From a virus (taxonomy: Duplodnaviria; Caudoviricetes), in the IMG/VR virus record IMGVR_UViG_3300042542_006078: a stretch of 64,000 bases of DNA, one strand, 5' to 3'. This document shows, one piece after another, positions 1 to 29,500 of this stretch. The position numbers were made by a program, and so were the translations under genes. The notes under the pieces are model-generated. The model searched no databases, had not been told where the DNA came from, and saw only the letters and a list, made by a program, of their open reading frames with translations. Position 1 is the stretch's first letter. Every line of letters starts with the position of its first letter.

Positions 1-593
1 TATCCGATCATAGTAATTGTTCCGTCATTTACTGGACGGAATTTAAGCAAGCAATATCCATCATCATATCCCCAATAAATAACGCCTTTTATTTTACTTT
101 TTATCCATTCGTTTTCAATTAAAAAAGGATTAACATCAGTGATGTGGTTATATTGATTTGTGACTAGTTTTTCGTCTATATCATCAAGATAATTTTGTGT
201 GAATTTTTGTGAAATTTTGAATTTCCTAAGTTGATCACTTAATTTGTAATTGTCGCCATGAATTCTTTTAGCCATATTTGTATGGAATACAAGATATTTA
301 TCAAGATCAGTGATTTTGAATTTTATTATAGCATTTCCGTAAGTTTCTGCCTTTCCCATAGTGCTTTCAAGATCAAAGACGAAGAACATACTATTTGGTT
401 GAAAGCTTTTATCAAAATTGGATAACATAGGATACTTGGATAACATAGGGTCGTCTTTATCATAATCGGATTTAGATCCATGTTGGAGTATTGAAAGTGC
501 ATTTTCAATTTCGTCGGTTCTATGATAAACTATTGCTGTTTTGCCATTACTGTCAATTTCTTCTTTAAGAAGCCATTGTTTGAAAGTAGTCAT
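1..593 (-). CDS. Partial (runs off left edge) ADP-ribosyltransferase/PARP-like protein with N-terminal capsid-targeting-like motif
   Basis: Not in the ORF track; translated by hand. ATG at 593, MTTFKQWLLKEEIDSNGKTAIVYHRTDEIENALSILQHGSKS...FFVFDLESTMGKAETYGNAIIKFKI, open to base 1. YHxT...I...G and YG...hKh resemble His-type ART strands. ATAAATA lies 4 nt upstream. Confidence 0.65.
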   Translation of the reverse strand, partial: MTTFKQWLLKEEIDSNGKTAIVYHRTDEIENALSILQHGSKSDYDKDDPMLSKYPMLSNFDKSFQPNSMFFVFDLESTMGKAETYGNAIIKFKITDLDKYLVFHTNMAKRIHGDNYKLSDQLRKFKISQKFTQNYLDDIDEKLVTNQYNHITDVNPFLIENEWIKSKIKGVIYWGYDDGYCLLKFRPVNDGTITMIG

Positions 594-696
594 GTTATAT
601 TTATCCTTAAACAAAAAAATGTTGTAATTCTAGGAATTGTTTGAATGTTATCATGGTTTATTTATTTTTTGTTTGTAAATATATGAGGTGATATAT

Positions 697-1200
697 TTAT
701 TTTGTTTTGATGTCCCACACCATCATTTGTTTATCGCCTCTTAAAAGGGCAGAAATAAAGCGACCTACTCCAAAAACAATTTCCCCATCTACCATTACGG
801 AAGGTTTAGCTGTTTCTCCAGTGAATTTTAGTGCCGTGTCCTTATATCGATTAGGTGTTGGATCATAAACCTTTCCCGGTTTTATTTGTAATCCCCATTT
901 TTGATTTATTTCTTGAACAACTTCTGATGGAGTTCGTGTTATTGATGAAAGGTTGTTTGGGTTTTTAAGCAAATCGGTCATGTTGTATTTAACTGGTTCT
1001 GGTCCGACTTGAAAAGAAGAGACCCAATCAATGTCTTCTTGTGTTGGTTCTTTTCTTTCGTCTAGAATTTCTTTTTGAAGAATTGATGGAAGTTTTGTTA
1101 ATGCTTGTATCCATTGTTGTGGTTTTCCCTGAAGTGCTTGTTGTGTGTTTATAGCACTCATCTTGTCTTGATTTTCGACAAATTGTTTGAAGGTGATCAT
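697..1200 (-). CDS. Tagged protein with degenerate ParB/Srx-like C-terminal domain
   Basis: Starts MITFKQFVEN. C-terminal KPSVMVDGEIVFGVGRFISALLRGDKQMMVW resembles ParB-N (P-h-h-h-DG-x-HR-h-x-A...G) with the core altered. Confidence 0.55.
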   Translation of the reverse strand: MITFKQFVENQDKMSAINTQQALQGKPQQWIQALTKLPSILQKEILDERKEPTQEDIDWVSSFQVGPEPVKYNMTDLLKNPNNLSSITRTPSEVVQEINQKWGLQIKPGKVYDPTPNRYKDTALKFTGETAKPSVMVDGEIVFGVGRFISALLRGDKQMMVWDIKTK

Positions 1201-1220
1201 GGTTTATTTAGTTTTTGTTT
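1180..1220. repeat. 41-bp exact direct repeat, copy 1 (copy 2 at 2052-2092), covering promoter box and MITFKQF codons
   Basis: aaattgtttgaaggtgatcatggtttatttagtttttgttt is present at both positions. Confidence 0.95.
1205..1211 (-). promoter_or_regulatory. T4-late-like promoter box CTAAATA (representative of 15 boxes located 4-5 nt before an ATG)
   Basis: NTAAATA, or ATAGATA, followed by 4-5 nt then ATG at 598-604, 1205-1211, 2077-2083, 2757-2763, 3731-3737, 5229-5235, 5539-5545, 6053-6059, 6227-6233, 9240-9246, 9610-9616(+), 10716-10722, 14587-14593, 17653-17659(+), 25922-25928(+). The T4 late consensus is TATAAATA. Confidence 0.8.
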
Positions 1221-1229
1221 ATGGTTTTA

Positions 1230-2072
1230 TCATTTCAGAATTTTTCTCACATTGCCAACATGATCGCTACCAGCGAAAAATATACCTCCTTGATTTTTCA
1301 TTAATTCTAATAAATGAGTATCACGCTGGATTTGAACCTCTGACTCCAAATTTGCAAGTTGGTTTGTGTTTGTTCGCCCTTTGACATAAAATATATTATA
1401 AGCCAAGTTTTGTCCTAGACTCAAAAACTTGTGCATATTTTGCGGTGTTGCTTCCATATCAAGCATTACAGACAAATGTGGTGTTTGTGAAAGTAATTTT
1501 CTTATATTTTCAGGTGATGCTTGTGCTGATTTAGATGCCCATGCTTGTTGATCGCCACTAGATGATTTAATTAACAATTCTAAAATTGTAGGAATATAAG
1601 AAGATGTAGAATTCCACTTTATTTGAGAAGTTCCTTTTTTATGGTTATTTTTAATTTGATGACCACCTTTTGCCATCTTATTTGCAACATCTGGATGTGA
1701 GTATATCATATACAACATATTTTTCGTATCTCCGCCGAAGATATCATTTAACAACGATCCTTGAGAGTTAATTTTTTTACCATGTTCTTCTGGCTCCCAT
1801 GAAAGAAGAGGCAGGTTTTCTAATTGGTTTTTTTGCAGGAAATCGACAACAATATGTTCAGCCTGATTTCCTTCATGCCAAACAGTAGTGCCTTTTTGCA
1901 TTAAATCTTTCATTTTATTGACACTTTGGTCGTCAGTTACTACTTCTTGACCATGTGAAACAGGAAATAGGACAGAATTTTGTAATGTAAGTGGTTGGTT
2001 AAATTTTGCTCTTACTAGGGAATAGGCCCTATTTTCTGCTTTTCCTTCGAGAAATTGTTTGAAGGTGATCAT
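1230..2072 (-). CDS. Tagged hypothetical protein
   Basis: 280 aa, starts MITFKQFLEG. C-terminal IFFAGSDHV is weakly reminiscent of TraB/ChaN-like G-x-x-H ends. Confidence 0.6.
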   Translation of the reverse strand: MITFKQFLEGKAENRAYSLVRAKFNQPLTLQNSVLFPVSHGQEVVTDDQSVNKMKDLMQKGTTVWHEGNQAEHIVVDFLQKNQLENLPLLSWEPEEHGKKINSQGSLLNDIFGGDTKNMLYMIYSHPDVANKMAKGGHQIKNNHKKGTSQIKWNSTSSYIPTILELLIKSSSGDQQAWASKSAQASPENIRKLLSQTPHLSVMLDMEATPQNMHKFLSLGQNLAYNIFYVKGRTNTNQLANLESEVQIQRDTHLLELMKNQGGIFFAGSDHVGNVRKILK

Positions 2073-2092
2073 GGTTTATTTAGTTTTTGTTT
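2052..2092. repeat. 41-bp exact direct repeat, copy 2
   Basis: Identical to 1180-1220. Confidence 0.95.
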
Positions 2093-2160
2093 GAATTTTC
2101 TTAAATTTCTTGTTTCATAGCTTGGATGTGATATGATACTAGATTTGTTTTCTTATTTAT

Positions 2161-2751
2161 TTATCCTAATATTTCTGGTTCTGTTTTTTTAGTCCATTTT
2201 TTTGTTTCTGGGTTTTTGACATATATTGCTATCAATTTGAGTGTTGGATAAGCAGAGTGGAGTATAGGAACTTCGTTTTCGATGTGTGAATCTTCTATTC
2301 CGACTTGACCTATTTTGTGTGGGTTCCAATATGATTCAACATCAGATCCTTTAGAAACTCCATGTCCAAGTATAGTTTTGCCCCACTGTTTCCAATCTAT
2401 TTGATCTCTGTTTGGCCCATCAAGTTCTGCTTCTACGATAATGTTGACTGTATTTTCTTTTCCTAGAAGGTATCCTTGTGAGCTTATTGCGCTTCCAGTT
2501 GCGAATCTTTCAGCAACTGGAAATTCAAGACTCCAAGGGTCTGATTGACCTTTATTTTTTTTGAATTCTGTTCCTTGAATGAGAATATCTCTGATTTTCA
2601 TTTTTCGTGATTCAACTGGCAATCTGACACCTCTGTATATCTTGGTTCCTTCCTTGATGTATTGCGAGTTCATATTGGAAAAATTACCATATGATGGTTC
2701 ACTTTGTGGTCTATTTGTTCTATTTTCGATGAATTTTTTGAAGGATATCAT
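2161..2751 (-). CDS. Putative R-S-E clade ADP-ribosyltransferase, tagged
   Basis: Starts MISFKKFIEN. Ordered motifs KIYRGV (R), PWSL (S) and ENEVPI (ExE), as in Alt/Mod/C2-like ARTs. Confidence 0.65.
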   Translation of the reverse strand: MISFKKFIENRTNRPQSEPSYGNFSNMNSQYIKEGTKIYRGVRLPVESRKMKIRDILIQGTEFKKNKGQSDPWSLEFPVAERFATGSAISSQGYLLGKENTVNIIVEAELDGPNRDQIDWKQWGKTILGHGVSKGSDVESYWNPHKIGQVGIEDSHIENEVPILHSAYPTLKLIAIYVKNPETKKWTKKTEPEILG

Positions 2752-2797
2752 GATAATATTTAGTTTATTTTTATGATTTTATCAAGTTGATAATTGT

Positions 2798-3307
2798 TTA
2801 GTTTATGATTACTTGTGGATTTTCTGAAATGAATTTGAAGTAGAATGGGTGGTTAAGAGTTTTGAGTCTCCACATGCTTGCTTCTTCGGGAGTTGCGGGT
2901 AATCTTTCGTCTGTCCAGTTGTGTTTTTTGACATTTTTTAGTTCTGGGTGTGGGTAAACAGTTATAAATTGTCCGTAGTGGTCTTGTATTCTTTTTCTTG
3001 TTCTTATTGCATCTGGAGATAGTGTTGTGTCTGATGCTAGTAGTGCGTTTACTGGTTTTATTGCGTATTTGACTACGAATTCAAGGGCGGCAAAGTATAA
3101 AATTGTTCCTGCTCCTTTTGATTGACCTTTTATGCTATGTACTGAGTAATATTTTGAATTCCAATAAAGTCTTATTGAACCTATGTTTTTTATTTCGAGA
3201 GTTGGTTGGTCTATTGTTCTTCCAGTTATGACAACCTCATATTCAGGATTTTCTAATTGGCTTCTTAGTATTTGGTCTTCGATTAAAAATTGTTTGAAAT
3301 TGATCAT
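2798..3307 (-). CDS. GNAT-like acetyltransferase, tagged
   Basis: Starts MINFKQFLIE. VHSIKGQSKGAGTILYFAALEFV resembles the acetyl-CoA-binding motif A, followed by LASDTTLSPDA. Confidence 0.55.
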   Translation of the reverse strand: MINFKQFLIEDQILRSQLENPEYEVVITGRTIDQPTLEIKNIGSIRLYWNSKYYSVHSIKGQSKGAGTILYFAALEFVVKYAIKPVNALLASDTTLSPDAIRTRKRIQDHYGQFITVYPHPELKNVKKHNWTDERLPATPEEASMWRLKTLNHPFYFKFISENPQVIIN

Positions 3308-3318
3308 TAGAATATTCC

Positions 3319-3726
3319 TTATTCTGGTTTAATGGTTATGACTTCGTCATTGACTAATTCGTATGTGTTCATTTTTTCTAGTGATTTTCGTAATAATGAA
3401 GATGCTTCATATTTGTTTACGAATAGACCTTTGGAGTAAAGGTTAGCTACTTTTTGAATAGCTGTTCTGTAGATGTTTTTGTTTTGGTATTTTTGGTCAT
3501 TTCTGGTTTCGGATTTCAGTTCGGTTTTGTATAGATGGAACATATTTTTGAATTGACCGAATTCTTGTTCAAATCCGCTTATATGTCCGATCATTTTTTC
3601 ATTATCATAGATGATATAGTTTATTCCATCTCCTGCTTTTATTTTAGTTATATATATATCATCTATATTGAGTGGTATTGCATTTGGTGGAATTTGGTTT
3701 TCTAAAAATTTTTTGAAGCTGGTCAT
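3319..3726 (-). CDS. Possible degenerate GNAT-fold protein, tagged
   Basis: Starts MTSFKKFLEN. YIIYDNEKMIGHI and YQNKNIYRTAIQKV resemble GNAT strands and motif A. Confidence 0.45.
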   Translation of the reverse strand: MTSFKKFLENQIPPNAIPLNIDDIYITKIKAGDGINYIIYDNEKMIGHISGFEQEFGQFKNMFHLYKTELKSETRNDQKYQNKNIYRTAIQKVANLYSKGLFVNKYEASSLLRKSLEKMNTYELVNDEVITIKPE

Positions 3727-3762
3727 ATTTTATTTAATCATATTGAAACTAATTTTTTAACA

Positions 3763-5223
3763 TTATCTTAATACTTCTGTCATGTAACTTTCAAGATTTG
3801 CAATTCCTTTTACTTTTTTGATTGGTACGAATTCATAGTTATTATCATCTGGTATAGAGATAACATATTCCAAGTTGTTTAACATTTTTTCATCGACTGA
3901 GTTTTTTGGATATTCATATCTTATCATAAATTTATATTCATCTGTTTTATATTTTTTGTTGTGTACATTTGATTTGTTTGTACGGAAATTAATTGTTTGT
4001 TGTTTGATGGTTCCCGAATACTGTTCTTGTGTGTTGATATTTTTTGCTCCTATCGTCTTAAGGATACGAGTTACTTTTATTGATGGATCAACAATTTTAT
4101 TTTCATGTAACCATTTTCTTATTTCTGGCGTGACTTGTGATTCTATGTTGTTGTCTTTGATATGTTTGCTTATTATGTTATAAGCTTCAAGTGCAACATT
4201 TGATATTTTTTCAAGTAGTTTTCTGTACATGCTTGGTTTCTTTTCCTTAAACCTAGTCATGTAAGATTTTACATCTTTGAATCCATTTGATTGAATTAAA
4301 GGATTAAATTTTTCTCTATGTGATTTTCCTTCTCTGATATAATTTATCAAGTCTTTGAAAACTGTTATTTGTTTTATAACCATTGCGCTTGGGTCGTCAT
4401 TTTTGATAGATTGTCTTGCGTAATTGATGACATAGTTAGCCCATCCAGATACATTTGCTATGAATTCTGGTTCTTGTTCAAAATATTTGCCGAATGCTTT
4501 TTTTCTTCCTTCTTCTGTACCATCGTGTTCAGAAGCAGACAAATAAGGAGCGAGTTTTGTTTTTTCTGAATCTTTTAGATGTTGTTGAAATTCTTCTTCT
4601 GGGTTTTTTCTGCCAAACAATTTACCAACACCAGTTTTGTCTAAAAGGGTTGATATTGGACCTCTGCCTCTTAATGCTTTTTCTTTTTTCATATATTCTT
4701 CAGGAGAACCACTTTTATATCTATATCCTTTTGATAAAGTTGGGTCGTATGCGTGAGCTAGTTCATGAGATAAAGTATCGTATAAATCTTCTAGTACTTT
4801 TTCTTTGTTATTATAGACGAATTTGTAAATTATTTCATGCGATGTTCCTTTTTCCAAAGAATCCAACCATTGTTGATTTTTTTCTAATTCTGGAAATGCC
4901 ATATTTGTTGTAATTACTATATGTGGTCTTTGGGAAAAAGCTTGTTGCCAGCCACCAGTTTTACTTTTTGATTCAATTGTTCTAACTGCCCAAACATCAT
5001 ATGTTCTTTTTTTGTTTTGATAAGGATCATTAAATTCAATTGTATCAACAAATTTGTATTTATCTGATTCTATTTTGCCTTCTTCTTTTTTTAGTTCAAT
5101 TAGTATTGGCAGCATTTTGTTTGCAATTTCATGCAATTTTTGTTGTATTTCTGGTGGAAAAATAATTGCTTTGGATTCATTAAAAAACCATTCTTTGAAT
5201 GAAAATGTTTTTGAATTATTCAT
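3763..5223 (-). CDS. Zincin-like metallopeptidase, tagged
   Basis: DTLSHELAHAYD (HExxH) with a downstream EPEF. Start moved to ATG 5223 (MNNSKTFSFKEWFFNE) because CTAAATA lies 5 nt upstream. Confidence 0.65.
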   Translation of the reverse strand: MNNSKTFSFKEWFFNESKAIIFPPEIQQKLHEIANKMLPILIELKKEEGKIESDKYKFVDTIEFNDPYQNKKRTYDVWAVRTIESKSKTGGWQQAFSQRPHIVITTNMAFPELEKNQQWLDSLEKGTSHEIIYKFVYNNKEKVLEDLYDTLSHELAHAYDPTLSKGYRYKSGSPEEYMKKEKALRGRGPISTLLDKTGVGKLFGRKNPEEEFQQHLKDSEKTKLAPYLSASEHDGTEEGRKKAFGKYFEQEPEFIANVSGWANYVINYARQSIKNDDPSAMVIKQITVFKDLINYIREGKSHREKFNPLIQSNGFKDVKSYMTRFKEKKPSMYRKLLEKISNVALEAYNIISKHIKDNNIESQVTPEIRKWLHENKIVDPSIKVTRILKTIGAKNINTQEQYSGTIKQQTINFRTNKSNVHNKKYKTDEYKFMIRYEYPKNSVDEKMLNNLEYVISIPDDNNYEFVPIKKVKGIANLESYMTEVLR

Positions 5224-5237
5224 GTTGATATTTAGTA

Positions 5238-5534
5238 TCACACGAAGAAATAATGAACATCTTTTTCGTCATCGTATAGCATAAACAAATCATGATTTTT
5301 ATCGTGGAGATAGATAGCATCTATGTCTTTAAGATTATTTGGCAAATTGACATTTTGCATGAATTGGTCTTTATTTATTTGTGTTGCATTTTCTTCAGAT
5401 TGGGCGAATTGTGTGGTGTCTTTGTATGGAATTTGTGGGATTGTGCAGTTTCCGTCTTCGTCGAATGAATTGACGCAATTTCCGACTAGTTGTTTTTTGT
5501 TTTTATTTTCTAGGAATATTCTGAATGATATCAT
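5238..5534 (-). CDS. Small tagged hypothetical protein
   Basis: 98 aa, starts MISFRIFLEN, CTAAATA 4 nt upstream. Confidence 0.7.
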   Translation of the reverse strand: MISFRIFLENKNKKQLVGNCVNSFDEDGNCTIPQIPYKDTTQFAQSEENATQINKDQFMQNVNLPNNLKDIDAIYLHDKNHDLFMLYDDEKDVHYFFV

Positions 5535-5602
5535 GTTTTATTTAGAATTAGCAGTTAAAATATTCTTCATAGATTGAGTAGAGGATGAACAAGGTTGTTA
5601 TG
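5505..5602. repeat. ~98-bp imperfect direct repeat, copy 1 (copy 2 at 6019-6116)
   Basis: Shared aggaatattctgaatgatatcatg..ttatttaga..ttagcagttaaaatattcttcatagattgagtagag.atgaa...gttgtta. Confidence 0.9.
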
Positions 5603-5622
5603 GAAGTTGTTGCATGGTGCGG

Positions 5623-6048
5623 TTACCTTCGTTTTCTGGGAAATTCATTAATAGCATCAATCCAGTCTGATTTTGATAGTGGGTATTTTTTATCTAAGGT
5701 TAAATATTCTTCTGGTGTATATCTGGCTTTAACTTTGCTGACATAAGAAGGTTTTTCTAAATAATGCGAAAACTGATCGAAAGTAGGGTCTATTTTTTCT
5801 CCATTCATTTCAATCCAAGTATGTTGTCTCAATTTGTCTTCTTGTTTATATTTGACCCATCCTTCAACTACGATGAAGTTTGTGATTCCTTTTTTGAGGG
5901 CTACTTTAGTGAACCAAGTGGCAAAAGCCATGCATGTTCCGACCTTTTTGCATTGAAGAATTTTTGCAATATTATTGGCAACATCTTTGGCTTTGTCTAA
6001 ATCAGACTTATCTTCTTGATTTTCAAGGAATATTCTGAATGATATCAT
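5623..6048 (-). CDS. Transglutaminase-like (Cys-His-Asp) protein, tagged
   Basis: Starts MISFRIFLEN. GTCMAFA...VVEGW...QHTWIEMNGEKIDPT fits the C-H-D triad spacing of the transglutaminase-like/papain-like superfamily. Confidence 0.7.
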   Translation of the reverse strand: MISFRIFLENQEDKSDLDKAKDVANNIAKILQCKKVGTCMAFATWFTKVALKKGITNFIVVEGWVKYKQEDKLRQHTWIEMNGEKIDPTFDQFSHYLEKPSYVSKVKARYTPEEYLTLDKKYPLSKSDWIDAINEFPRKRR

Positions 6049-6116
6049 GATTTATTTAGATTAGCAGTTAAAATATTCTTCATAGATTGAGTAGAGTATG
6101 AAGATAGTTGTTATTG
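6019..6116. repeat. ~98-bp imperfect direct repeat, copy 2
   Basis: Matches 5505-5602. Confidence 0.9.
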
Positions 6117-6222
6117 GCATTATTGCGATAAATGACAGGGTGCTAATTAATTCTTGTTGAGAATTAGGTAGTGCTGGGTTATTTGTTGTTATATGTTGAA
6201 TTATGTAGATTATTTCTTCCAT
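6061..6222 (-). CDS. Small (53 aa) predicted membrane peptide
   Basis: Hand-translated MEEIIYIIQHITTNNPALPNSQQELISTLSFIAIMPITTIFILYSIYEEYFNC*. ATAAATA lies 4 nt before the ATG; hydrophobic C-terminal stretch. Confidence 0.55.
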   Translation of the reverse strand: MEEIIYIIQHITTNNPALPNSQQELISTLSFIAIMPITTIFILYSIYEEYFNC

Positions 6223-6429
6223 GCATTATTTATAAAAATTTTAATCTCAAATACATGAATTTTGGATGAAGTTATTTGTCTATTACTGAAATTTCTCGTT
6301 GTTTTAATTAATTTTCTAAAGATCTTTTTAACAATTGGCTTATGAAATTAATTTTTATTATGTTGGCCCTCATTAAAGTTTTTTTCAAAAAAATGATTCT
6401 CGATTAGTTTGGGTCAAATGGAGAGAAAA

Positions 6430-7551
6430 ATGAAGTATTTTATATATTGTCCTTACATTACATCTTCATCGTCGAAATCCATGCATCATTTGTGTTCGAG
6501 TTTGAATAGTTGTGGTCATGATGCAATTATGGTTTATGAGGGAATTGATTTCGATGTTGAAATTCTTTATGGTAATTGTTTTGATTTTCTCAAATCGAGT
6601 TCACAAGTTGATGATTCATATGAGAATGTGATAATTTTCCCTTCATTGTATACGAGGGATTATATGATTAAGAGGCTTGGTTTGAAAAGGATAAGGATGG
6701 CCATTTGGTGGCTTTCCAAGGAAAAAAAAGAAGAATCTGGTTCATCTTGGTTAAATAGGTCTTTGATAAATCTTTGCTTTTCTGAGGATTTGCTTAAAGA
6801 TTTCGATTTTGGTAAATTTCTTTTGGATGAAGGTAAAATTGATTCTTGTATCGTTGACATAAACAATTTTTTCCGTATGAATTGTGATTTTAATGATTTG
6901 GGAAGGAACATCATTGAGTTTGAGAATGTTGTTTCTTGTTTCTCGAACTCGATATTTGTTGATTTGGGTGTGAGGACTGGAGTGAGTAGCATGATGATGT
7001 TGAATTATGCTAATGAGAGAAATAATGAGGTTTATGGAGTTGATGTTGATTTCTCGATGACTGAAAATTTTGTTTTGTCGAATACGAGTTACAAAAGAAT
7101 TTTTGGGGATTCGAGTAGTATTGGTAAGATATGGAATAAGGGAGATGTTTCTGTATTGTTTGTTGACACTATACACGCATATGAGCAGGTGATGTGTGAG
7201 TTATATTACTGGTATGAACATGTTCGTGATGGAGGTTGGATAGTATTTCATGATACTGATTGGCCTGATGGCAAGAATGAGTTTATAGGAGGAAGGAATT
7301 GGGAAAGGGCAGACAATGGTGTGAAAAATTTCTTTGGAATTGAATCCTTGAATTACGAGGATGATTACATCTTGGTTAAGCATTACCCTTCATCTTGGGG
7401 AATGACATTCGTTAATGTTAAAAAGAAGAAGGATTATGTGTCCTTATTCAAGGATTGGGACAATGTTTTTGCGGAAAGAAATTATTTAACATCAATTTTT
7501 TGGAATGAAGGCAATTTGGGTGGAAGGAAAATTGATTTAGTTTTGCCTTGA
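6430..7551 (+). CDS. Class I SAM-dependent methyltransferase (Methyltransf_24-like) with N-terminal glycosyltransferase-like segment
   Basis: Motif I FVDLGVRTGVSS; LFVDTIHAYEQV; GGWIVFHDT. N-terminus YFIYCP...HHLCSSL...IWWLS resembles the start of phage GT-B proteins. ATG 6430 follows GGAG. Confidence 0.75.
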   Translation: MKYFIYCPYITSSSSKSMHHLCSSLNSCGHDAIMVYEGIDFDVEILYGNCFDFLKSSSQVDDSYENVIIFPSLYTRDYMIKRLGLKRIRMAIWWLSKEKKEESGSSWLNRSLINLCFSEDLLKDFDFGKFLLDEGKIDSCIVDINNFFRMNCDFNDLGRNIIEFENVVSCFSNSIFVDLGVRTGVSSMMMLNYANERNNEVYGVDVDFSMTENFVLSNTSYKRIFGDSSSIGKIWNKGDVSVLFVDTIHAYEQVMCELYYWYEHVRDGGWIVFHDTDWPDGKNEFIGGRNWERADNGVKNFFGIESLNYEDDYILVKHYPSSWGMTFVNVKKKKDYVSLFKDWDNVFAERNYLTSIFWNEGNLGGRKIDLVLP

Positions 7552-7578
7552 CATTGATAATTAGTCTATTTCGGTCAT

Positions 7579-7962
7579 TTATTCGTCACCGTACTGGAAG
7601 TAGTTGGATTTACGGTCAAAGGATTTGAGTATTTCTGGGAGGTCTTCTCTGTTGTTTATATCATTAATATTTATGACATAACCTTTGCCACCTGATGTCA
7701 TCATTCTATATTGTCCTGTTCCAAATCCTCCTTCTTCTTGAGTTTTTCTCAAATCTATGATTTCCCCTGCTTTTGTTGTTCTTCTTGAAAATGTATCATC
7801 TTTGTGAAAAAGGAGTTCGTATTTTGATCCTGATTTTCTAATTTCTACTGATATTCCTTTTGATCTTAAGGAGTGATGATATTTATCATCTGGCAATATT
7901 TTCATTTCCTGAACTTGGCTTTCAATTTTCAATCTTTTGGATAGCCATTTATTGAATTTCAT
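7579..7962 (-). CDS. Tagged hypothetical protein
   Basis: 127 aa, starts MKFNKWLSKRLKIE. Confidence 0.6.
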   Translation of the reverse strand: MKFNKWLSKRLKIESQVQEMKILPDDKYHHSLRSKGISVEIRKSGSKYELLFHKDDTFSRRTTKAGEIIDLRKTQEEGGFGTGQYRMMTSGGKGYVININDINNREDLPEILKSFDRKSNYFQYGDE

Positions 7963-8013
7963 TTTTGCCTTAAATTAAATTTTGTTTAATTATATATGTG
8001 TTAAATTAACTAT

Positions 8014-9234
8014 TTACATATTTCCGAGAAAAATTTCTTTTTCTTTTTGATTCATGGAGTTGGCTATTTCAGGGCCTTTCATGTGCATAAAATCTTTTGA
8101 ATTAGTTTGTTGTTTATAGTCAGCGAACTTATGAATGATGTTATTTTTTTGTAGTTTGGCAAATTCTAAGATATCATCTTTTGATCCTTGAAGAATTTCT
8201 TTTCTTTTGATTAGAGGAATGATTGGTGATGTTTCGAGGTTGTTGAGTTTGAGTAGTAGTTCAACTTTGTCTGAAACATCGTTTGTGTATTTGAGTGCTG
8301 ATAGTTTCTTTCTTACTTCTGTTGGTTCTGTGTTATCTCTCAAAATGAATGCTAGAGAAGCTGGGAAGCTTTTGACGCTTTCGATGTTTTGAGTATTTAC
8401 AATAAGTCCGGGTAGTACTGCTGGGAATAGTCCCAATTCTTGGTAATTTTTGAGGTAGCTTGATTTGTCTTTTGCTGATTTGAATCCGCTCATGAATTCT
8501 GCAACTATTCTTTCTCCTGATACACCTTCTAGTGTTTTGTATTTTTCTATTGCTCCGAGAGTATCGGAATCAAGTTGGTCTTTGATTCTGTTTGCATTAA
8601 ATCTACTGAAGAATCGGATCAATCTTAGTACTCTGAGTTTATCTTCTCTGAATCTGTCATATGGATTGCCTACTGGTCTTGCGACAAGGTTTTTGATGTC
8701 TTCAATTCCTTGGCCTTTTCCATTTGTTGTGTTGAAGTCAAGAATAGTTTTTTTATCGATGTCATAGAAAAGGGCATTCATGGTGAGGTCACGCCTGCTC
8801 GCATCTTTATCTGCTGTTGAGAAGCTTACTTTATCAGGTCTTCTTCCATCACCTGATATTGGATCATAATATTCTTCACGGAAAGTAGCTATTTCATATT
8901 CGTTGCCATTAAGGATTGCGGAAATGACACCGAATGCTTCTCCTTTTGGAAGTACTTTAATTCCGTGTCTAAGAGAATCTTGGCTTTTAAGAATTGCTGT
9001 TATTTGATCTGGTGTTGCATCTGTGGTGAGATCGACATCTTTTGGTCCAGAACCTTTTCCAGCCATGTGAAAATGGCTTATGAGGAAGTCACGAATTACT
9101 CCTCCTACTGCATAAAGTTTCTTGTTGTGTTTCTTGAATAGATCATTAAGAACCATGATATCATTAGGCATCGGTATTTCGATGTTGATATATTCTGCTT
9201 TTTCTTCGTTTTCAAGCCAAAGTTTGAATTTCAT
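8014..9234 (-). CDS. cca: Class II tRNA nucleotidyltransferase (CCA-adding enzyme / poly(A) polymerase family), motifs intact, tagged
   Basis: YAVGGVIRD, KDVDL (DxD), ATFREE..GRRPDKV loop, RRDLTMNAL, EDKLRVLRLIRF, SGERIVAEF. Start moved to ATG 9234 (MKFKLWLENE), which has ATAAATA 5 nt upstream. Confidence 0.9.
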   Translation of the reverse strand: MKFKLWLENEEKAEYINIEIPMPNDIMVLNDLFKKHNKKLYAVGGVIRDFLISHFHMAGKGSGPKDVDLTTDATPDQITAILKSQDSLRHGIKVLPKGEAFGVISAILNGNEYEIATFREEYYDPISGDGRRPDKVSFSTADKDASRRDLTMNALFYDIDKKTILDFNTTNGKGQGIEDIKNLVARPVGNPYDRFREDKLRVLRLIRFFSRFNANRIKDQLDSDTLGAIEKYKTLEGVSGERIVAEFMSGFKSAKDKSSYLKNYQELGLFPAVLPGLIVNTQNIESVKSFPASLAFILRDNTEPTEVRKKLSALKYTNDVSDKVELLLKLNNLETSPIIPLIKRKEILQGSKDDILEFAKLQKNNIIHKFADYKQQTNSKDFMHMKGPEIANSMNQKEKEIFLGNM

Positions 9235-9336
9235 GAGATTATTTATGGTATTAGAAAAATTTTTTGGTTTTGCTGAATTTTGGATTTTTCTTGACGAATA
9301 GGTATTGGTTTCTTTGATTTCATAGGAGTGCTTGAA

Positions 9337-9624
9337 ATGCAATACACGACTGTAATTCGTTGTTCTGGTTCTGATTTTGTTGGTAAAGACAAGAATGCTT
9401 TTAAGTCAGCTTTGGCTGCAAAGAAAGGTTTGAATTTGCCCAAAAAGGTTCATGTTTCGATTTCATTGGTTTTGGATGGTACTGAGATATTTCGTTCTCA
9501 TGGATTGGGTTTGAAGAGTGCTTTTTGGAGTTTTAAGGATAAATTGAGAAAGATGAAATTTGAAAGTAAAATTTTGATTGTCAAACCAATTACTTTGGTT
9601 TCGAGAGAGATAAATAAGGCATGA
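9337..9624 (+). CDS. Basic hypothetical protein
   Basis: AGGAG at 9324-9328 precedes ATG 9337; stop overlaps the next start (ATGA). Confidence 0.55.
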   Translation: MQYTTVIRCSGSDFVGKDKNAFKSALAAKKGLNLPKKVHVSISLVLDGTEIFRSHGLGLKSAFWSFKDKLRKMKFESKILIVKPITLVSREINKA

Positions 9625-10214
9625 TTTATTTTAAGTCTTGGTTAGAGAGTTCTGATTCTTTTCCAAGATATCTTTATCATGTAACTCCATCTTGTGATGA
9701 AGTTTTGAAAACTGGATTCAAGACTTCATCGCAATTGCCGCCCGGTTCGACTGTAATGGGTGGTAGTCATCAAAATTCTGTTAGTTTTACTTATGATTTG
9801 AAATGGGCCTATTATTATAAAGAGGCATTAGAAGAAGTCCGAGATATGTTAAATGATTCGGATTACATGTATAGCGATAAAATGTGGGACAGATTGCTTA
9901 AAAAGTTTCCTCTTTCTTCTAATGGCAGATATCTGATTGATTTAACAAAAAATATGATATATCCAAAAAAAGATGAACATGAAAAGATGCAGTTGTTTTT
10001 TCATATGCTTCCTCAAATATTTGATGGTCATTTCCCATTGATTTTTGGATCTGGATTAAAGAGAAGGCTTTCTGGAAATCCAAATATTTGCATATTAAAA
10101 GTTGACACTAGTGGATTATCATTGGATTTGGGGGAATCTAATCCAAAAGAAAAAGAAATTAGAGTTAAAAATCCAGAATTAATTAGTCTTGATAGAATCG
10201 ATGTTGTTTCGTGA
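9621..10214 (+). CDS. ADP-ribosyltransferase-fold protein (Tpt1/PARP-like His type), tagged
   Basis: Starts MIYFKSWLES. YLYHVT...VLKTGFK, SVSFTYD, ILKVD, EKEIRV. ATAAATA 4 nt upstream. Confidence 0.6.
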   Translation: MIYFKSWLESSDSFPRYLYHVTPSCDEVLKTGFKTSSQLPPGSTVMGGSHQNSVSFTYDLKWAYYYKEALEEVRDMLNDSDYMYSDKMWDRLLKKFPLSSNGRYLIDLTKNMIYPKKDEHEKMQLFFHMLPQIFDGHFPLIFGSGLKRRLSGNPNICILKVDTSGLSLDLGESNPKEKEIRVKNPELISLDRIDVVS

Positions 10215-10225
10215 ATCAATAATCT

Positions 10226-10711
10226 TCACTTTGCTTCTATCCAAACTGGAATTTCTGTTCTTCCTGCGTTTTTGTATGATTGCATTCTATGATGTCCGTC
10301 TCTAACCGAGTAATTATCGGGTGTTCCTTGTACTGTTATTGCTTCTGTATCTTTATTTGGATATCTTTTTAGATATGCTGTATATTTTGTAACTGTTCTA
10401 GGAGAATAAAGTTCTCTTTGTCCTATTGCGCTCCCTTTGAATCCTGATATTGGATATATTTTTTTGACAAACACTCCATCCATCGAGTTAAGATATTCAG
10501 TTCCATTGATTATAGCTCTGAATCCAACTCGTTGTTTTTTGAGGAATGGCATCAAATCCATTCTTCCAGCTTTGAATTCTTTTTCTGCTTCAATTGCAAT
10601 TTTATCGCTAAGGGGGATATATCCCAAATTAGGGTTTAACCTAGGTCTTTGGACAACCTTGTATTCAAGAGGGTTAGATTCACAGAAAATAAGAAAATCT
10701 TTGAAGTTCAT
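10226..10711 (-). CDS. ParB/Srx-like domain protein, tagged
   Basis: Starts MNFKDFLIFCE. AITVQG...YSVRDGHHRMQSYKNAGRTEIPVWI is a typical ParB-N motif. Confidence 0.75.
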   Translation of the reverse strand: MNFKDFLIFCESNPLEYKVVQRPRLNPNLGYIPLSDKIAIEAEKEFKAGRMDLMPFLKKQRVGFRAIINGTEYLNSMDGVFVKKIYPISGFKGSAIGQRELYSPRTVTKYTAYLKRYPNKDTEAITVQGTPDNYSVRDGHHRMQSYKNAGRTEIPVWIEAK

Positions 10712-10714
10712 GTT

Positions 10715-11842
10715 TTATTTATTCAATTTCAAGTCAATTTTTTCCCAAGAAAATTCATTTCTTCCGAAATGTCCTCCGCTTGCTGTAGCTGAATAAATTG
10801 GTTGTCGAAGTTGAAGTCTATCGATGATTGATTTGGGATTGAGTGGTACATTTTTAGTGATGAGTTGTGTGAGTTCTTCATCATTTCCTGTTCCGAATGT
10901 TTGCACACGGATTGAAACAGGTTCTATTACTCCTATTGCGTATGATACTTGAACTTGGCATTTTTTGGCGAATCCTTGTGATACCAAGTTTTTGGCTACA
11001 TGTCTTGCTGCGTATGCTGCACTTCTGTCTACTTTAGTTGGGTCTTTGCCGCTAAAGCTTCCTCCTCCTATTGGGCAATCTGCTCCGTAATTATCAACGA
11101 CGATTTTTCTGCCGCTTAGTCCTGTATCTGCTGCTGGCCCTCCAAGAGTCCAAAGTCCAGCAGGGTTGTATAACCATTTAGTTGTATTGTTCACTAATTG
11201 GCCAAAATCTTTAGTAATTGCCGGATAAACGATTTCATGGACATATTCATGAAGTTTTTCTATATTTTTGAAAACACCTTCACGATGTTGAGTTGAGACA
11301 AGTATTGTATCGATATATTTTGGATTTCCATCATTGTCATATGCTATGGTTACTTGGCTTTTTGCGTCTGGTAAAAGTGTATTAGAAATTGTTCTATTTT
11401 CTTTAAGTGCGTTAATTGCCACAAAGCTTAGATGATGGGCAAGAGGCATGAGTGGTTTTGTTTCATTGCAAGCAAATCCGAACATAAGTCCTTGGTCGCC
11501 CGCTCCGATATTTCCATCTTCTTTAGCTACTGCTTGAGCAATTTGCGATGATTGTCTATTGAGGTGATCAAGAATTTTAATTGTATTTCCGTCATAGCTT
11601 GTTTCTGGTGAGTTGTAGCCTATTTCGGTTATTTTTCTACGGACAAGTTTTTCAATGTCGAGTTTTTTTGATGATGATGTTTCACCTGTAACGAGTACGA
11701 GTTCTTTGCAACATGTTACTTCGACTGCGACACGGCTATTTGGTTCTAATTCCAAGTATGCATCAAGAATGGTATCTGCTATTTGGTCTGCGACCTTGTC
11801 TGGATGACCGTTTGAAACTGCTTCGCTTGTCCAAAGATACAT
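10715..11842 (-). CDS. metK: S-adenosylmethionine synthetase
   Basis: TSEAVSNGHPDKVADQI, GAGDQGLMFGFA, GGPAADTGLSGRKIVVDNYG, GGGSFSGKDPTKVDRSAAY. GAGGT RBS upstream. Confidence 0.97.
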   Translation of the reverse strand: MYLWTSEAVSNGHPDKVADQIADTILDAYLELEPNSRVAVEVTCCKELVLVTGETSSSKKLDIEKLVRRKITEIGYNSPETSYDGNTIKILDHLNRQSSQIAQAVAKEDGNIGAGDQGLMFGFACNETKPLMPLAHHLSFVAINALKENRTISNTLLPDAKSQVTIAYDNDGNPKYIDTILVSTQHREGVFKNIEKLHEYVHEIVYPAITKDFGQLVNNTTKWLYNPAGLWTLGGPAADTGLSGRKIVVDNYGADCPIGGGSFSGKDPTKVDRSAAYAARHVAKNLVSQGFAKKCQVQVSYAIGVIEPVSIRVQTFGTGNDEELTQLITKNVPLNPKSIIDRLQLRQPIYSATASGGHFGRNEFSWEKIDLKLNK

Positions 11843-11930
11843 ATGATTTACCTCATTTTGGTTTCAGATTAATGTAGTAATATTCCTATGATATATTTGG
11901 ATTTTATGTTAGTGAAGGAAAATAAAAATC

Positions 11931-12077
11931 ATGAAAAAAGATCAAGAGGTAAAGTCGCAATCTTTGGGTTTTTTGGCGACATTTATTTTGATTTCTGCTT
12001 GCAGGTCTGTGATTGGATATATAGCAGTTTGGCTTTTTAAGCCAATCTGGAATTGGTTTTGGAACAAGAAAAATTAA
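11931..12077 (+). CDS. Small (48 aa) membrane protein
   Basis: Hand-translated MKKDQEVKSQSLGFLATFILISACRSVIGYIAVWLFKPIWNWFWNKKN*. GAAGGA upstream. Confidence 0.5.
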   Translation: MKKDQEVKSQSLGFLATFILISACRSVIGYIAVWLFKPIWNWFWNKKN

Positions 12078-12084
12078 TTAATCC

Positions 12085-12612
12085 TCAGAATTTTCTTATT
12101 GATTTAAGATTTTTGAATTTTGAGTCAGGTATGATATCAGATGGTTTGTCCAATTTTTCTCCAACATGTTGCATGTGTTTTCTAACTCCACGCTCATTTT
12201 GGCCGACTCTCTTGTGAATTGGCGGGAAATTTGTTTCCATCCATTGGATGATTGCTTTTGGATCGCCTTCACTTCCGCATGTGAAAACATCAATATTGAG
12301 AAGTCCTTTTTCTGGCCATGTGTGGACTACGATGTGGCTTTGTCCTAGGACGATGAGATATGTGAATCCTGATTCTGGCTTGTTGTCATAAAGAGTCAGT
12401 CTTTTGTCGAAAACTTTCATGTTTCCATGTTCGGCTGCTTTGACTAGTGAATCAATAAGTGTTTCCTTATTGGCGACCTGTAGAAAATCGCTTTTTTCAG
12501 GATGATACCAAAAATCAACATTAAGGCTTAATCCAGAGCAATAATCACCTGTTGGAGTGTGAATTATTTCTGATTGTTCTTCTTCAATTAGCCATTTTTT
12601 GAAATCAATCAT
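12085..12612 (-). CDS. speD: Pyruvoyl-dependent S-adenosylmethionine decarboxylase family protein, tagged
   Basis: GFTYLIVLGQSHIVVHTWPEKGLLNIDVFTCG (consensus G-x-T-x-h-h-h-L-x-ESH-h-x-h-HTWPE...DhFTCG). Starts MIDFKKWLIEE. Confidence 0.88.
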   Translation of the reverse strand: MIDFKKWLIEEEQSEIIHTPTGDYCSGLSLNVDFWYHPEKSDFLQVANKETLIDSLVKAAEHGNMKVFDKRLTLYDNKPESGFTYLIVLGQSHIVVHTWPEKGLLNIDVFTCGSEGDPKAIIQWMETNFPPIHKRVGQNERGVRKHMQHVGEKLDKPSDIIPDSKFKNLKSIRKF

Positions 12613-26508: not shown

Positions 26509-29500
26509 ATGGACCAAACAGCAATCGACAATCTTGGCAGAACAATAACTCCTTTAATAGGAAGTATTGATGCTCTTCGTAGTGCCTTGGGCTCTTTGAA
26601 GACTGGTGATCCTCAGGCAGTTGGAGGAGATCCCAAAGCAATCAGTGATCTTACTGGTCTGATGTCAGAGTTTATCAAAGATTTCAAAAAATCAGCAGAT
26701 GAAGAAAAATCTTTGCTTAACGAAGTAGTAAATGCCATGAAAAGTGGCAAGGCTTCGAGGTCTAAAACAAAAGCTTCATCAGGAGGAACTGGACCAGATT
26801 CTAAAAGTGCTAAAAATTCTGAGGAAATCGCCGACAATCAGGAAAGAGCCAATAACGCACAGACAAGTGGTTATAAAACCGGCCAATTAATGAGAAATCT
26901 TTCAAATGAATTGAAAATTAATTATAAAGAACATAATAGTTTATTGGAAAAAGCAATCCAAAATGTTGTAGAACAAAATAACCATCAAGCAAAAATAACA
27001 GATAGCCAATTTAATGGCTATCAAATAACAAAAGAATTGAACGAAGAACAAAAAAAACTTGTAAAGGCGGAATTTGACAGTCTTCTTTATCAAAGGAAAT
27101 CTACTGATGCGGCTTATAAATTTAGGCAACAGCTTTCTGATGTTAGATCGACTTTTGACAGCATAAATTCATCACTTGGAATTCAAACAAATTTAACAGA
27201 AGGTCTTGTCAAGGAAGAAGCCCAATTTACAAGAGATGTTCGTGCTGCCGCTTATGAAACTGCTGGAGTTACAAAAAACAGCAAATCTCTTCAAAGAGTT
27301 TACGAAGATATAGGCACAAGTGTAAGAGCAACAGGAGTTGATAGAACTAAGTTCCAGCAATCTTATATGAAAGCCCTTAAGGGTGGCGTAAAAGACTTGA
27401 AACAGGCTGTTTCTTTGACGACAACTCAGTTAAATACCGAACAACAACTTGGAATGGAAGCCGGTTCTCTTCAAGACACATTTCAAGGCATGGCTCAATC
27501 AGGTCGAATGACAAATAGTCAAATATCTGAAGTCGGTCGTGGAATGCGTGATGTTGCAAGGAATACTGGTCTTACTGGAGAGGCACTTAGAGGCGCTGTG
27601 GATTCAAGCCGTGAAATTATCAATCAACTAAGAAATGCTGCGAATCTTACTGCTACTGCAACCAAGAATGTTATTGAAATGAATGCCAACGCCAAGAAAC
27701 TTGGAGTTGAAAGTCAGATGCAAAGTCTGCAAAGCGGTTTGACAAGCGGTGCTAAACTTCTGACCGAATCATCTACCGAAACAAGAAATGCCATTTTAAT
27801 GGCTGCTGGGAAAACAGGTAAGCTCAGAGAAGCAATGAATGGCACATTGCTTGATACAAAGGATGGAATCAAGTCTTTAGGCAAGGGATTCCAAGGAATT
27901 CTAAAAGATTTCGGAGTTGGTAGCCTTGAAGAAATTGATCAGTTATCAGCAGAAGCAAAAACAAGACTAAATATTCAGTTAAAATCCGTTGTGGGTATGG
28001 AATTAGGGGAATTCCGATCATTGATTGAATCTGTTAATGAAGCGGGCAAGGGATTGGGAGACAGACTGACAGATATCAATAAGAAGATGCAAGGAAACAT
28101 AACTGCCGACGAAAAAAAGAATTTAATGGAAGAGCAAAGAAGATTAAAAGCAAGCAAACAACTTGAGATGCTGACAGCCCTCGATGAAGCAGCCAAGGGT
28201 GCCAAGGACATGAATGGTGCCTTGGCTAAGTTTGGTGAAAAGAAAAAGGATTTTGAAGGCGATTTACAAGCTTTGGGAACTAGTTGGACAGACTCTACTC
28301 AAGTTGCTAGAGAATCTATTAGAGGAGCCTTGGAAAATGTTAACCAAGGACTAAAAGAAGCTGGAAAATCTCAATTAAAAATTGATTCGACTGAAATAGA
28401 AAAAGCCCTCAAAGACCCAACAGCACTTCGTGAATTGACTGCTAAAATTACCAAAGGAGAACAAGAACTTGCTACTGCTCAAAAAGCGCAACTTGATCCA
28501 GTAACTCAATCTAATCAATATTTGAGTGAAATCAATGACAATATGAGAAACTTGTCTCAGAACATCATGTCAAAGGGCATGAATAGCATAGTTGGACAAG
28601 GCGCTGTGGCAGCTAGCGTAATGGGATCACTTGCAACCCAATTCGGTCAATTTGCTTCTTCATCATCAGAAACATTTGGAGATCTTAAAGGAGCTTTATT
28701 TGGAAAAGCAAGGGTTGGAGATAAAGAAGCAGAAAAAAGTATTTTTGGCAACATAAAAACTTTGATTTTTGGAGCAGGAAAAGAATCTGGACAACAACCA
28801 GAAGAAGCGGCAAAAACTGCTGGCCAAGCAGCTACAACAGAAGCAGCAAAAACTGCTGGCCAAGCAGCTACAACAGAAGCAACAACTACCCAAAAACCAT
28901 TAGATGCATTTTTAGCTGCTGGTTTAAGTAGCAAGGGCGAAGTACCAACTTCAGCATCACAAAAAGCAGAGAGTGCTGCTGGTAAGGAAGCGTCAGATAA
29001 GTCTGGCGGTATTTCTGGCGGAAAATACATGAAAGTTTTCCAAGACATGATCACTTCAATTGAACTGATGGGTGTATGTTGTGAAAGAACACATGAGTCG
29101 ATAAAAACAGCAATTGCTGCACTTGAGCATATTGCTAAATGTTGTGATTTAACAAATAATTCGATACAAAAAGCTATTGAATCTGTTAAATCTCCTTCTC
29201 CGACTGCTACTGCTTCTGCTGCTGAAGCTAAACCAAATGCCGCAGAAGATGCTATAAACAAAAAAATTCAAGATCAGCAAATGGAGAATGCAATAACCGA
29301 TGCAAATGTAAACAAAATTAAAATTAGAGAACAGAAAAAAGAAGTAAGAATGTTGAGGGTTGATCAAAGACTTCAAAGAGAAGAAGTCAAGGAATCTAAA
29401 ACAAAAGAAGCTGAATCTTCTGCTGGAGGGGCGGCAACAGGACCACCAGATGCATCAGTACTTGATCCAAAAGCCATGGAACAGGGCGGCAAATCAATGA

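Follow-up and report, generated by a model that had tools for sequence, protein, structure and literature searches.

The 64,000-nucleotide (nt) stretch of viral DNA analysed here, hereafter the window, belongs to IMG/VR record IMGVR_UViG_3300042542_006078 (Duplodnaviria; Caudoviricetes) and carries an exact 41-nt repeat in front of two unrelated genes. Very probably, this repeat is the common start module of an array of cargo genes of the T4 internal-protein (IP) type, each module combining a short TAAATA-containing box with the codons of a conserved N-terminal tag. Comparison with related contigs shows such modules to be the junctions at which cargos are exchanged between relatives. The window is the minus strand of positions 32200-96199 in a record of 136,667 nt, which is estimated to be 31% complete.

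A reading of the DNA made from the sequence alone had described an exact 41-bp duplication (1180-1220 and 2052-2092) that spans upstream DNA, a CTAAATA box and the codons for MITFKQF and ends as the cargo begins. Both the duplication and its limits were confirmed. The two copies have 0 mismatches, the 41-mer occurs exactly twice in the window, and none of 100 dinucleotide-preserving shuffles contained a match even when up to three mismatches were allowed. Both copies and all the genes concerned lie on the minus strand. In the direction of the genes, each copy opens with 20 nt of upstream DNA, namely an A-rich stretch of 9 nt, the CTAAATA box and an AACC spacer; the ATG and the six codons that complete MITFKQF follow. 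In a repeat search the identity reached 47 nt with one mismatch (1174-1220 against 2046-2092). This sole mismatch is the first base of codon 8, which reads GTC (Val) in one copy and CTC (Leu) in the other. Codon 9 is GAA (Glu) in both, and the identity stops where the cargo starts, because no similarity remains from codon 10 on. A diverged third copy lies at 628-674 (87% identity), and the repeat search returned weaker members of the same family at 628, 2725, 3700 and 5508. The repeat is real, being neither a chance match nor a product of assembly or paralogy.

The two genes behind the repeat encode proteins of 167 and 280 amino acids (aa). They had been described as unrelated, and the comparison agrees with this: BLASTP aligns residues 1-27 only (E 0.005), clear identity is confined to the first 9, and no similarity is found past residue 27, so that the two are not full-length paralogues. 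The predicted folds also differ, the model of the 280-aa protein being weak. For the 167-aa protein, the model has a predicted local distance difference test score (pLDDT) of 86.6, with the tag residues at about 49 beside a well-folded cargo. Residues 67-167 gave matches to the ParB/sulfiredoxin (Srx) fold in eleven consecutive VIA rows (Z 4.0-7.0), led by Srx (Z 7.0, root-mean-square deviation 2.2 over 73 residues), KorB (6.1) and PadC (6.0). A Foldseek search of the model against PDB returned nothing at E <= 0.001, and the ParB/Srx assignment is based on the VIA rows together with weak Foldseek rows. The ParB/Srx-like domain contains a GxGR...ALLRGD motif, and metagenomic contigs as long as 389 kb carry about 30 homologues of the 167-aa protein. 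The model of the 280-aa protein is poor (pLDDT 60.9). Its best match, ChaN at Z 6.7, falls inside the noise range stated for the tool; therefore no fold is claimed.

Relatives were obtained by a tag-pattern scan of IMG/VR and from a large protein collection. A locus search of IMG/VR for relatives of the two cargos found none, and a DNA search with window positions 1-8000 against isolate phage records gave zero matches. Contigs L047, L038 and L056 are 99.3% identical to the window over 3726-2158 and 97.5-98.6% identical from -1073 onward (negative coordinates denote record positions beyond the window start). Between these flanks the window holds 3.2 kb with the 280-aa and 167-aa genes, a tag without cargo, a 344-aa gene and a 193-aa gene, and the three contigs hold 0.49 kb with a single 159-aa tagged gene. 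The left break of this replacement lies exactly after a GATAAATA box at the stop codon of the 196-aa gene. The same box precedes the next tagged gene in L047 and L062 and is orphaned in the window. The right break lies at the box of a 197-aa gene on the -1073 side, whose tag is far more diverged than its cargo.

The sequence-only reading had proposed that promoter and tag move together as a cassette and that the repeats allow shuffling of the genes between them. Both proposals are supported by the relatives, in which module and cargo assort independently and exchange is bounded by the modules. L047 and L062 are identical over 76 nt, comprising a gene end, the box and nine tag codons, and diverge from codon 10, where a cargo of 159 aa follows in L047 and one of 280 aa in L062. 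Between the window and L062, the 280-aa cargo is identical at 813 of 816 nt from codon 10, whereas only 40 of the preceding 74 nt agree. L012 and L055 have the end of the 169-aa gene and a box joined straight to the 344-aa gene, and further different neighbours of the same cargos are found in L019, L073 and L058-L061. Cassette content and order vary among L047, L038, L056, L012, L019, L062, L063, L073 and L075: whole cassettes have been added, removed or moved, and the breakpoints fall at the box or tag. The 280-aa and 167-aa cargos are each found without the other. An exception that weighs against homologous exchange at every breakpoint is L075, where only the last ~29 codons of the 280-aa gene remain, right after the box and upstream of an intact 167-aa gene. 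The cargo-side end of this deletion is away from any tag, and therefore not all events are homologous; some losses are illegitimate deletions.

Contigs L063 and L064, which come from two different samples, keep the order of the 280-aa and then the 167-aa gene and hold a full tagged gene where the window has the tag without cargo. Their 280-aa and 167-aa genes have an exact common block of their own, 46 nt long and different from that of the window. Orthologous modules of the window and L063 agree at only 42-44 of 74 positions while the cargos are about 95% identical. This indicates that neighbouring modules, being alike within a genome and different between genomes, probably evolve in concert. 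The next gene in L063 has 50 nt in common with the 280-aa gene, including three cargo codons. Comparison with these relatives shows the exact 41-nt identity to be the trace of a recent recombination between two adjacent cassettes. Through crossovers or gene conversion within the modules, any cargo can come to stand behind any module, cassettes are lost or change their order, and neighbouring modules stay identical. The modules can be regarded as portable recombination homology, since every cassette opens with the same ~30-50 nt.

Ordinary tandem duplication with divergence of the paralogues, or identity maintained by selection alone without recombination, would suit the adjacent position and common strand of the two genes, and selection on the box and tag is real. 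Both are nevertheless very improbable. The pair has no similarity past the first 27 residues, no pair among the tagged cargos has any once the first 12 residues are removed, the predicted folds differ, and each cargo occurs alone in relatives. As to selection alone, the identity spans synonymous sites and the 9-nt upstream stretch, which is unconserved in other cassettes, and the L063 modules are identical to each other yet unlike their orthologues in the window. Both explanations were rejected on the dissimilarity of the cargos and on the L063 module pattern. Even less credible is an error of assembly, for instance a chimera formed at a short repeat. The record is indeed a metagenomic contig, but final assembly k-mers are typically longer than the repeat, the gene order and common start module recur in L063 and L064 from two other samples, and three further contigs match the flanks of the window at 97-99% identity. 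The reproduction of the arrangement in these independent samples led to rejection of this explanation.

The pair belongs to a run of at least 16 genes (Table 1) that open with M-(K/I)-(T/S)-F-K-Q-F-(L/V/I)-E or a close variant. Thirteen of them lie in window positions 1-12612 and three just beyond the window start, which gives at least 16 cassettes in 15 kb. All-against-all BLASTP of the 16 cargos without their first 12 residues gave no pair below E 0.1, and searches of Pfam and PHROGs returned nothing for most of them. The 406-aa protein matches PF01743 (E 5e-24) and phrog_2244 (E 9e-43). The HELAH motif and the tag variant of the 486-aa protein suggest that it may be a packaged metalloprotease-like protein. 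The 98-aa gene and the unrelated 141-aa gene have 85 nt in common at 95%, covering the upstream region, the box and the MISFRIFLEN codons. This second module duplication (5502-5599 and 6011-6100) extends further upstream than the 41-nt repeat.

Table 1. Coordinates of the repeat copies and of tagged or tag-like genes in the window
Feature	Position	Strand	Remarks
Tagged gene, 344 aa, 5' part (MTTFKQWLLKEE)	1..593	-	Box 4 nt before ATG; gene runs off the window
Tag without cargo	607..674	-	Box, ATG, MITFKQFLE, then six codons and stop; box of the next gene directly after
Tagged cargo gene, 167 aa	697..1200	-	Helical N-terminal part and C-terminal ParB/sulfiredoxin-like domain
Repeat copy A	1180..1220	-	Start module of the 167-aa gene; CTAAATA box 1205-1211, 4-nt spacer, ATG 1198-1200, MITFKQF
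Tagged cargo gene, 280 aa	1230..2072	-	No known family; weak ChaN-like fold hint only
Repeat copy B	2052..2092	-	Start module of the 280-aa gene; CTAAATA box 2077-2083, ATG 2070-2072, MITFKQF
Orphan GATAAATA box	2158..2165	-	Overlaps the stop codon of the 196-aa gene; then 85 nt of unrelated spacer
Tagged gene, 196 aa	2161..2751	-	MISFKKFIEN
Tagged gene, 169 aa	2798..3307	-	MINFKQFLIED; only member of the run without TAAATA box
Tagged gene, 135 aa	3319..3726	-	MTSFKKFLEN
Gene, 486 aa	3763..5223	-	Longer tag variant MNNSKTFSFKEWFFNE; HELAH (HExxH) motif; no significant Pfam or PHROG match
Tagged gene, 98 aa	5238..5534	-	MISFRIFLEN; start module duplicated at the next gene
Tagged gene, 141 aa	5623..6048	-	MISFRIFLEN
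tRNA nucleotidyltransferase-like tagged gene, 406 aa	8014..9234	-	MKFKLWLENEE; box 5 nt before ATG
Tagged gene, 197 aa	9621..10214	+	MIYFKSWLES; opposite strand; box 4 nt before ATG
Gene, 161 aa	10226..10711	-	Tag-like start MNFKDFLIFCES; box 4 nt before ATG
SpeD-like (S-adenosylmethionine decarboxylase) gene	12085..12612	-	Tag-like start MIDFKKWLIEEE; PF02675; without box; membership of the set uncertain

The genes for the phage head allow the array to be placed. The record encodes a major capsid protein of the gp23 type (PF07068, E 2.7e-88), a prohead protease of the gp21 type (Peptidase_S77, E 2.7e-26), a coiled-coil gp22-like scaffold open reading frame (ORF) between the capsid and protease genes, and a baseplate wedge resembling gp6. 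Among public records, the 595-kb uncultured phage LR756511 is nearest, its capsid protein being 81% identical; next come jumbo phages of Xanthomonas and Stenotrophomonas and cyanophages at ~30-40% identity. By its gene content, the record is a 136.7-kb fragment of a huge phage of the T4 superfamily. In T4, a capsid targeting sequence (CTS) of ~10 residues directs to the scaffolding core not only the IPs and Alt but also any foreign protein fused to it, and it is removed by gp21, which cuts after Glu (PMC8442874, PMC3012670, PMC5694885, PMC7411985); the sequence of the T4 CTS is given in PMC8442874, and cleavage after Glu is a property of the T4-type prohead proteases (PMC5694885).

Read from NC_000866, the T4 leaders are MKTFKEF in IPI and MKTYQEFIAE in IPII and IPIII. 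The array tags MKTFKQFLE and MITFKQFLE are similar to these CTS leaders of ~10 residues. T4 ipII and ipIII moreover have an exact common block of 47 nt, made up of 15 nt upstream (including the ribosome-binding site) and 32 coding nt (NC_000866). Glu stands at position 9-12 after hydrophobic residues in 16 of 16 tags, and the tags occur together with a T4-type head set of gp21-type protease, gp23 and gp22-like scaffold ORF. The closest match among known systems is therefore a T4-type CTS (internal protein) locus, because the tag resembles that of IPI, the module resembles that of ipII and ipIII, and both gp23 and gp21 are present.

The pattern of codon changes points to selection on the tag as a peptide. 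In the ten canonical tags Phe4, Phe7 and Glu9 are invariant, whereas other codons change synonymously or conservatively; position 8 is served by seven codons for Leu, Ile, Val or Met. Pairwise comparison of the ten tags gave 74, 64 and 114 differences at the first, second and third codon positions, respectively, and 73 of the codon differences are synonymous. Scanned for the exact pattern MITFKQFxE, IMG/VR yielded 54 loci, which include lineages of 30-60% G+C; by our own rough estimate, well under one match would be expected by chance.

A different explanation is that the conserved start works only at the level of RNA or translation, as an unstructured start or 'downstream box', or else serves as a degron or localisation signal, with no packaging involved. 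The first 27 nt are A/T-rich and fairly conserved, as such a role would have it. This explanation is improbable in view of the retention of the peptide through synonymous and conservative codon changes in lineages that range from 30 to 60% G+C. The near-identity of the tag to the start of T4 IPI, the matching protease encoded by the genome and the Glu after hydrophobic residues, as at gp21-type sites, also argue for a CTS. Two observations weigh against the CTS assignment: some distant tagged homologues lack the Glu (e.g., MKTFEQYLQDKM), and the site in the tags is F-(L/V/I)-E, as opposed to I-A-E in T4.

The coding half of the module specifies a leader of ~9 residues, M-(K/I)-(T/S)-F-K-Q-F-(L/V/I)-E, homologous to the T4 CTS. 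By analogy with T4, we infer that it would attach the protein to the prohead's scaffolding core and be cut off after Glu9 by the gp21-type protease. The packaged cargo would then remain in the head and be injected along with the DNA, where it could act against host defences.

The lineage of the 167-aa cargo includes a member without a tag. Protein P0026 (contig L066, 55.6 kb) is a homologue with 60% identity whose Met1 aligns to Met14 of the tagged protein, with an in-frame stop upstream. This fits a gain or loss of the tag on this lineage.

Strict tag patterns were not found in the 595-kb LR756511. A manual ORF scan of its positions 550000-595163 (L072) found looser tags, namely MKTFAEWME, MLEFKEFID, MLTFLEYV(V) and MRTTFLEFMG, the last of which sits on a homologue of the CCA enzyme. 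These tags are scattered, form no tight run and are mostly without a box at the ATG. Tagged genes are also present on the strand opposite to the main run and back to back with it, in L073 (563-991) and among the minus-strand genes of L058, L059 and L060. They carry the tags MKSFKEYL, MKTFFEYLE and MLTFFEYV; TATT directly precedes their ATG, and a clear TAAATA box is missing.

The non-coding half of the module concerns expression. A crude gene call over the whole record shows AGGAG or GGAG before the ATG of most genes. The tagged genes have no Shine-Dalgarno sequence, and (C/A)TAAATA ends 4-5 nt before their ATG. From TAAATA to the next ORF-opening ATG the distance is 4 nt in 15 cases and 5 nt in 6, with 0-3 cases at each other distance; the arrangement TAAATA-N4-5-ATG was observed 22 times compared with 9.7 in shuffles. 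In a few untagged genes this box lies 15-18 nt ahead of the ATG, and a Shine-Dalgarno sequence stands between the two. The late promoter of T4, TATAAATA, covers positions -13 to -6 (PMC1524935), and cyanomyoviruses use NATAAATA as a late promoter (PMC2984593). The (C/A)TAAATA box fits the late-promoter consensus of the T4 family. A leaderless start at or next to the AUG is plausible because of this fit and because the untagged genes show the box together with a Shine-Dalgarno sequence. Leaderless genes are typically marked by a -10-like element at a constant distance of 4-6 nt from the start codon, together with the absence of a Shine-Dalgarno sequence. That the box acts as a T4-type late promoter giving leaderless transcripts is, on balance, about an even chance.

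Several observations weigh against a promoter. No TAAATA box was found within 150 nt upstream of the capsid, scaffold and protease genes or of the adjacent 674-aa gene, and the box is therefore unsupported here as the general late promoter of the phage. Single-sequence searches found no homologue of T4 gp55 in the fragment or in LR756511; this negative is weak, given a small, divergent protein and a fragment of an estimated 31% completeness. With T4 numbering (-13 to -6), the 4-nt spacer makes the T of the ATG position +1, which is one base too far downstream, so that for most genes a shift of 1 nt has to be assumed. Finally, the 169-aa gene of the run has no box at all.

These facts could arise if the box were not a promoter and UAAAUA served as a Shine-Dalgarno-independent signal for translation start, or as an RNA processing site on long late transcripts, the tag still being a CTS. 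The array is compatible with such co-transcription: intergenic spacers of ~29 nt are A/T-rich and without hairpin, and the cluster has no excess of terminator-like sites (8, with 6.6 expected), none of which is on the gene strand. Set against it are the fit of the box to the T4-family consensus, its position 15-18 nt upstream of a few untagged genes with a Shine-Dalgarno sequence, as a promoter would show, and the leaderless signature described above. A non-promoter role of this kind is a real possibility, although somewhat doubtful.

If the late-promoter reading holds, the ~40-nt start would be a complete, self-contained module for late, leaderless, head-packaged and injected expression, in which a promoter -10 box is fused to the start codon and the capsid tag. 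A single recombination could then turn any ORF into an injected effector, and huge T4-related phages would in this way assemble and continually reshuffle dozens of injected enzymes, among them the CCA-adding enzyme, the ParB/Srx-like protein and the metalloprotease-like protein. This fullest reading is put forward tentatively, at a little under an even chance. A one-step conversion of an ORF into an effector fits the untagged P0026.

The principle is not new, since T4 ipII and ipIII have their common 47-nt start. For the CTS-bearing products of T4 ipI, ipII and ipIII (and Alt) and for the hypervariable IP loci of T-even phages, PMC3012670, PMC2839356 and PMC4122927 cite Mullaney and Black (1996), Repoila et al. 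(1994) and Comeau et al. (2007). The IP loci of T-even phages are described as highly polymorphic, and their recombinational shuffling was proposed in 1994 (Repoila et al., as related in PMC2839356 and PMC4122927). The array resembles these loci in the short N-terminal leader ending in Glu on unrelated proteins, in the presence of a gp21-type protease, and in clustered genes that vary in number, order and identity between close relatives; the 47 nt common to ipII and ipIII parallel the 41 nt of the array pair. It differs from T4 in scale, with at least 16 cassettes in one run compared with 3 in T4 and ~30 variants across all T-evens. The cargos reach 486 aa and include enzyme-like proteins (the CCA-adding enzyme, the HExxH protein and the ParB/Srx-like protein). 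Unlike the ip genes, which have a Shine-Dalgarno sequence and no late box by the ATG, the array genes have a box abutting the ATG and no Shine-Dalgarno sequence. The leader is also one residue shorter before Glu, and the phage belongs to a distant huge-phage lineage whose capsid protein is ~30% identical to those of cyanophages and jumbo T4-like phages.

Two other systems bear comparison. The PeSL (promoter-early stem-loop) cassettes, mobile regulatory units of T4-type phages (Arbiol et al. 2010, PMC2839356; Comeau et al. 2014, PMC4122927), likewise have short repeats that flank variable genes and supply homology for shuffling. A PeSL unit is non-coding, with a sigma70-type early promoter and a G+C-rich stem-loop, whereas the array repeat joins a late-type box to a coding tag. 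Membership of the PeSL group was rejected on the hairpin-free spacers and the lack of enrichment of terminators and of sigma70-like sites in the cluster (59 compared with 53 expected). The ejection proteins of phiKZ and SPN3US are head-internal proteins processed after Glu by a T4-like prohead protease (PMC5694885, PMC7411985), as is presumed for the array proteins. N-terminal identity between the otherwise diverged gp53 and gp54 has been noted there (PMC5694885, PMC7411985). Their propeptides are mostly longer than 100 residues and sit on paralogues, as distinct from the 9-residue, T4-like leader on unrelated cargos. Thus the principle is known from the T-even IP loci; what sets the array apart is its scale, its enzyme-sized cargos, a box placed at the ATG in the absence of any Shine-Dalgarno sequence, the huge-phage lineage and the base-level resolution of the junctions.

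Some further features of the record may be mentioned. The SpeD-like gene adjoins a gene for S-adenosylmethionine synthetase (MetK, three Pfam domains; window 10715-12612) and has a weak Shine-Dalgarno-like AAGG in place of the TAAATA box. A single ORF of 2708 aa occupies window positions 26509-34635, upstream of baseplate and tail genes. Beyond the window start, positions 98700-129100 of the record (G000:C1) hold a long array of small genes on the other strand with two recurring upstream modules. One of them ends in a strong AAGGAGAC ribosome-binding site, and the other is a conserved motif of ~30 nt beginning CTTCGGAAAGCCGAG; many internal repeats are 80-96% identical. These upstream repeats form a family distinct from the tag modules and possibly represent another shuffling system.

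The significance of the array follows from the moment at which its products would act. Injected proteins are prime candidates for counter-defence and host take-over because they are active before any phage gene is expressed; T4 IPI*, for instance, blocks a restriction enzyme. Packaging of the 406-aa protein, which resembles a CCA-adding enzyme, would if it occurs deliver a tRNA-repair enzyme together with the DNA; such an enzyme might conceivably counter host defences that target tRNA. Since the tag is at once a probable packaging address and a recombination handle, the locus shows at base-pair resolution how cargos can be recruited and exchanged. It also provides a rule by which candidate injected proteins may be listed in uncultured huge phages: TAAATA placed 4-6 nt ahead of the ATG of a gene whose product begins M-x-(T/S)-F-K-x-(F/W/Y)-(L/I/V)-E. 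Should the box-at-ATG layout prove true, it would constitute a compact natural module for expression and packaging, with possible use in the engineering of T4-style protein delivery.

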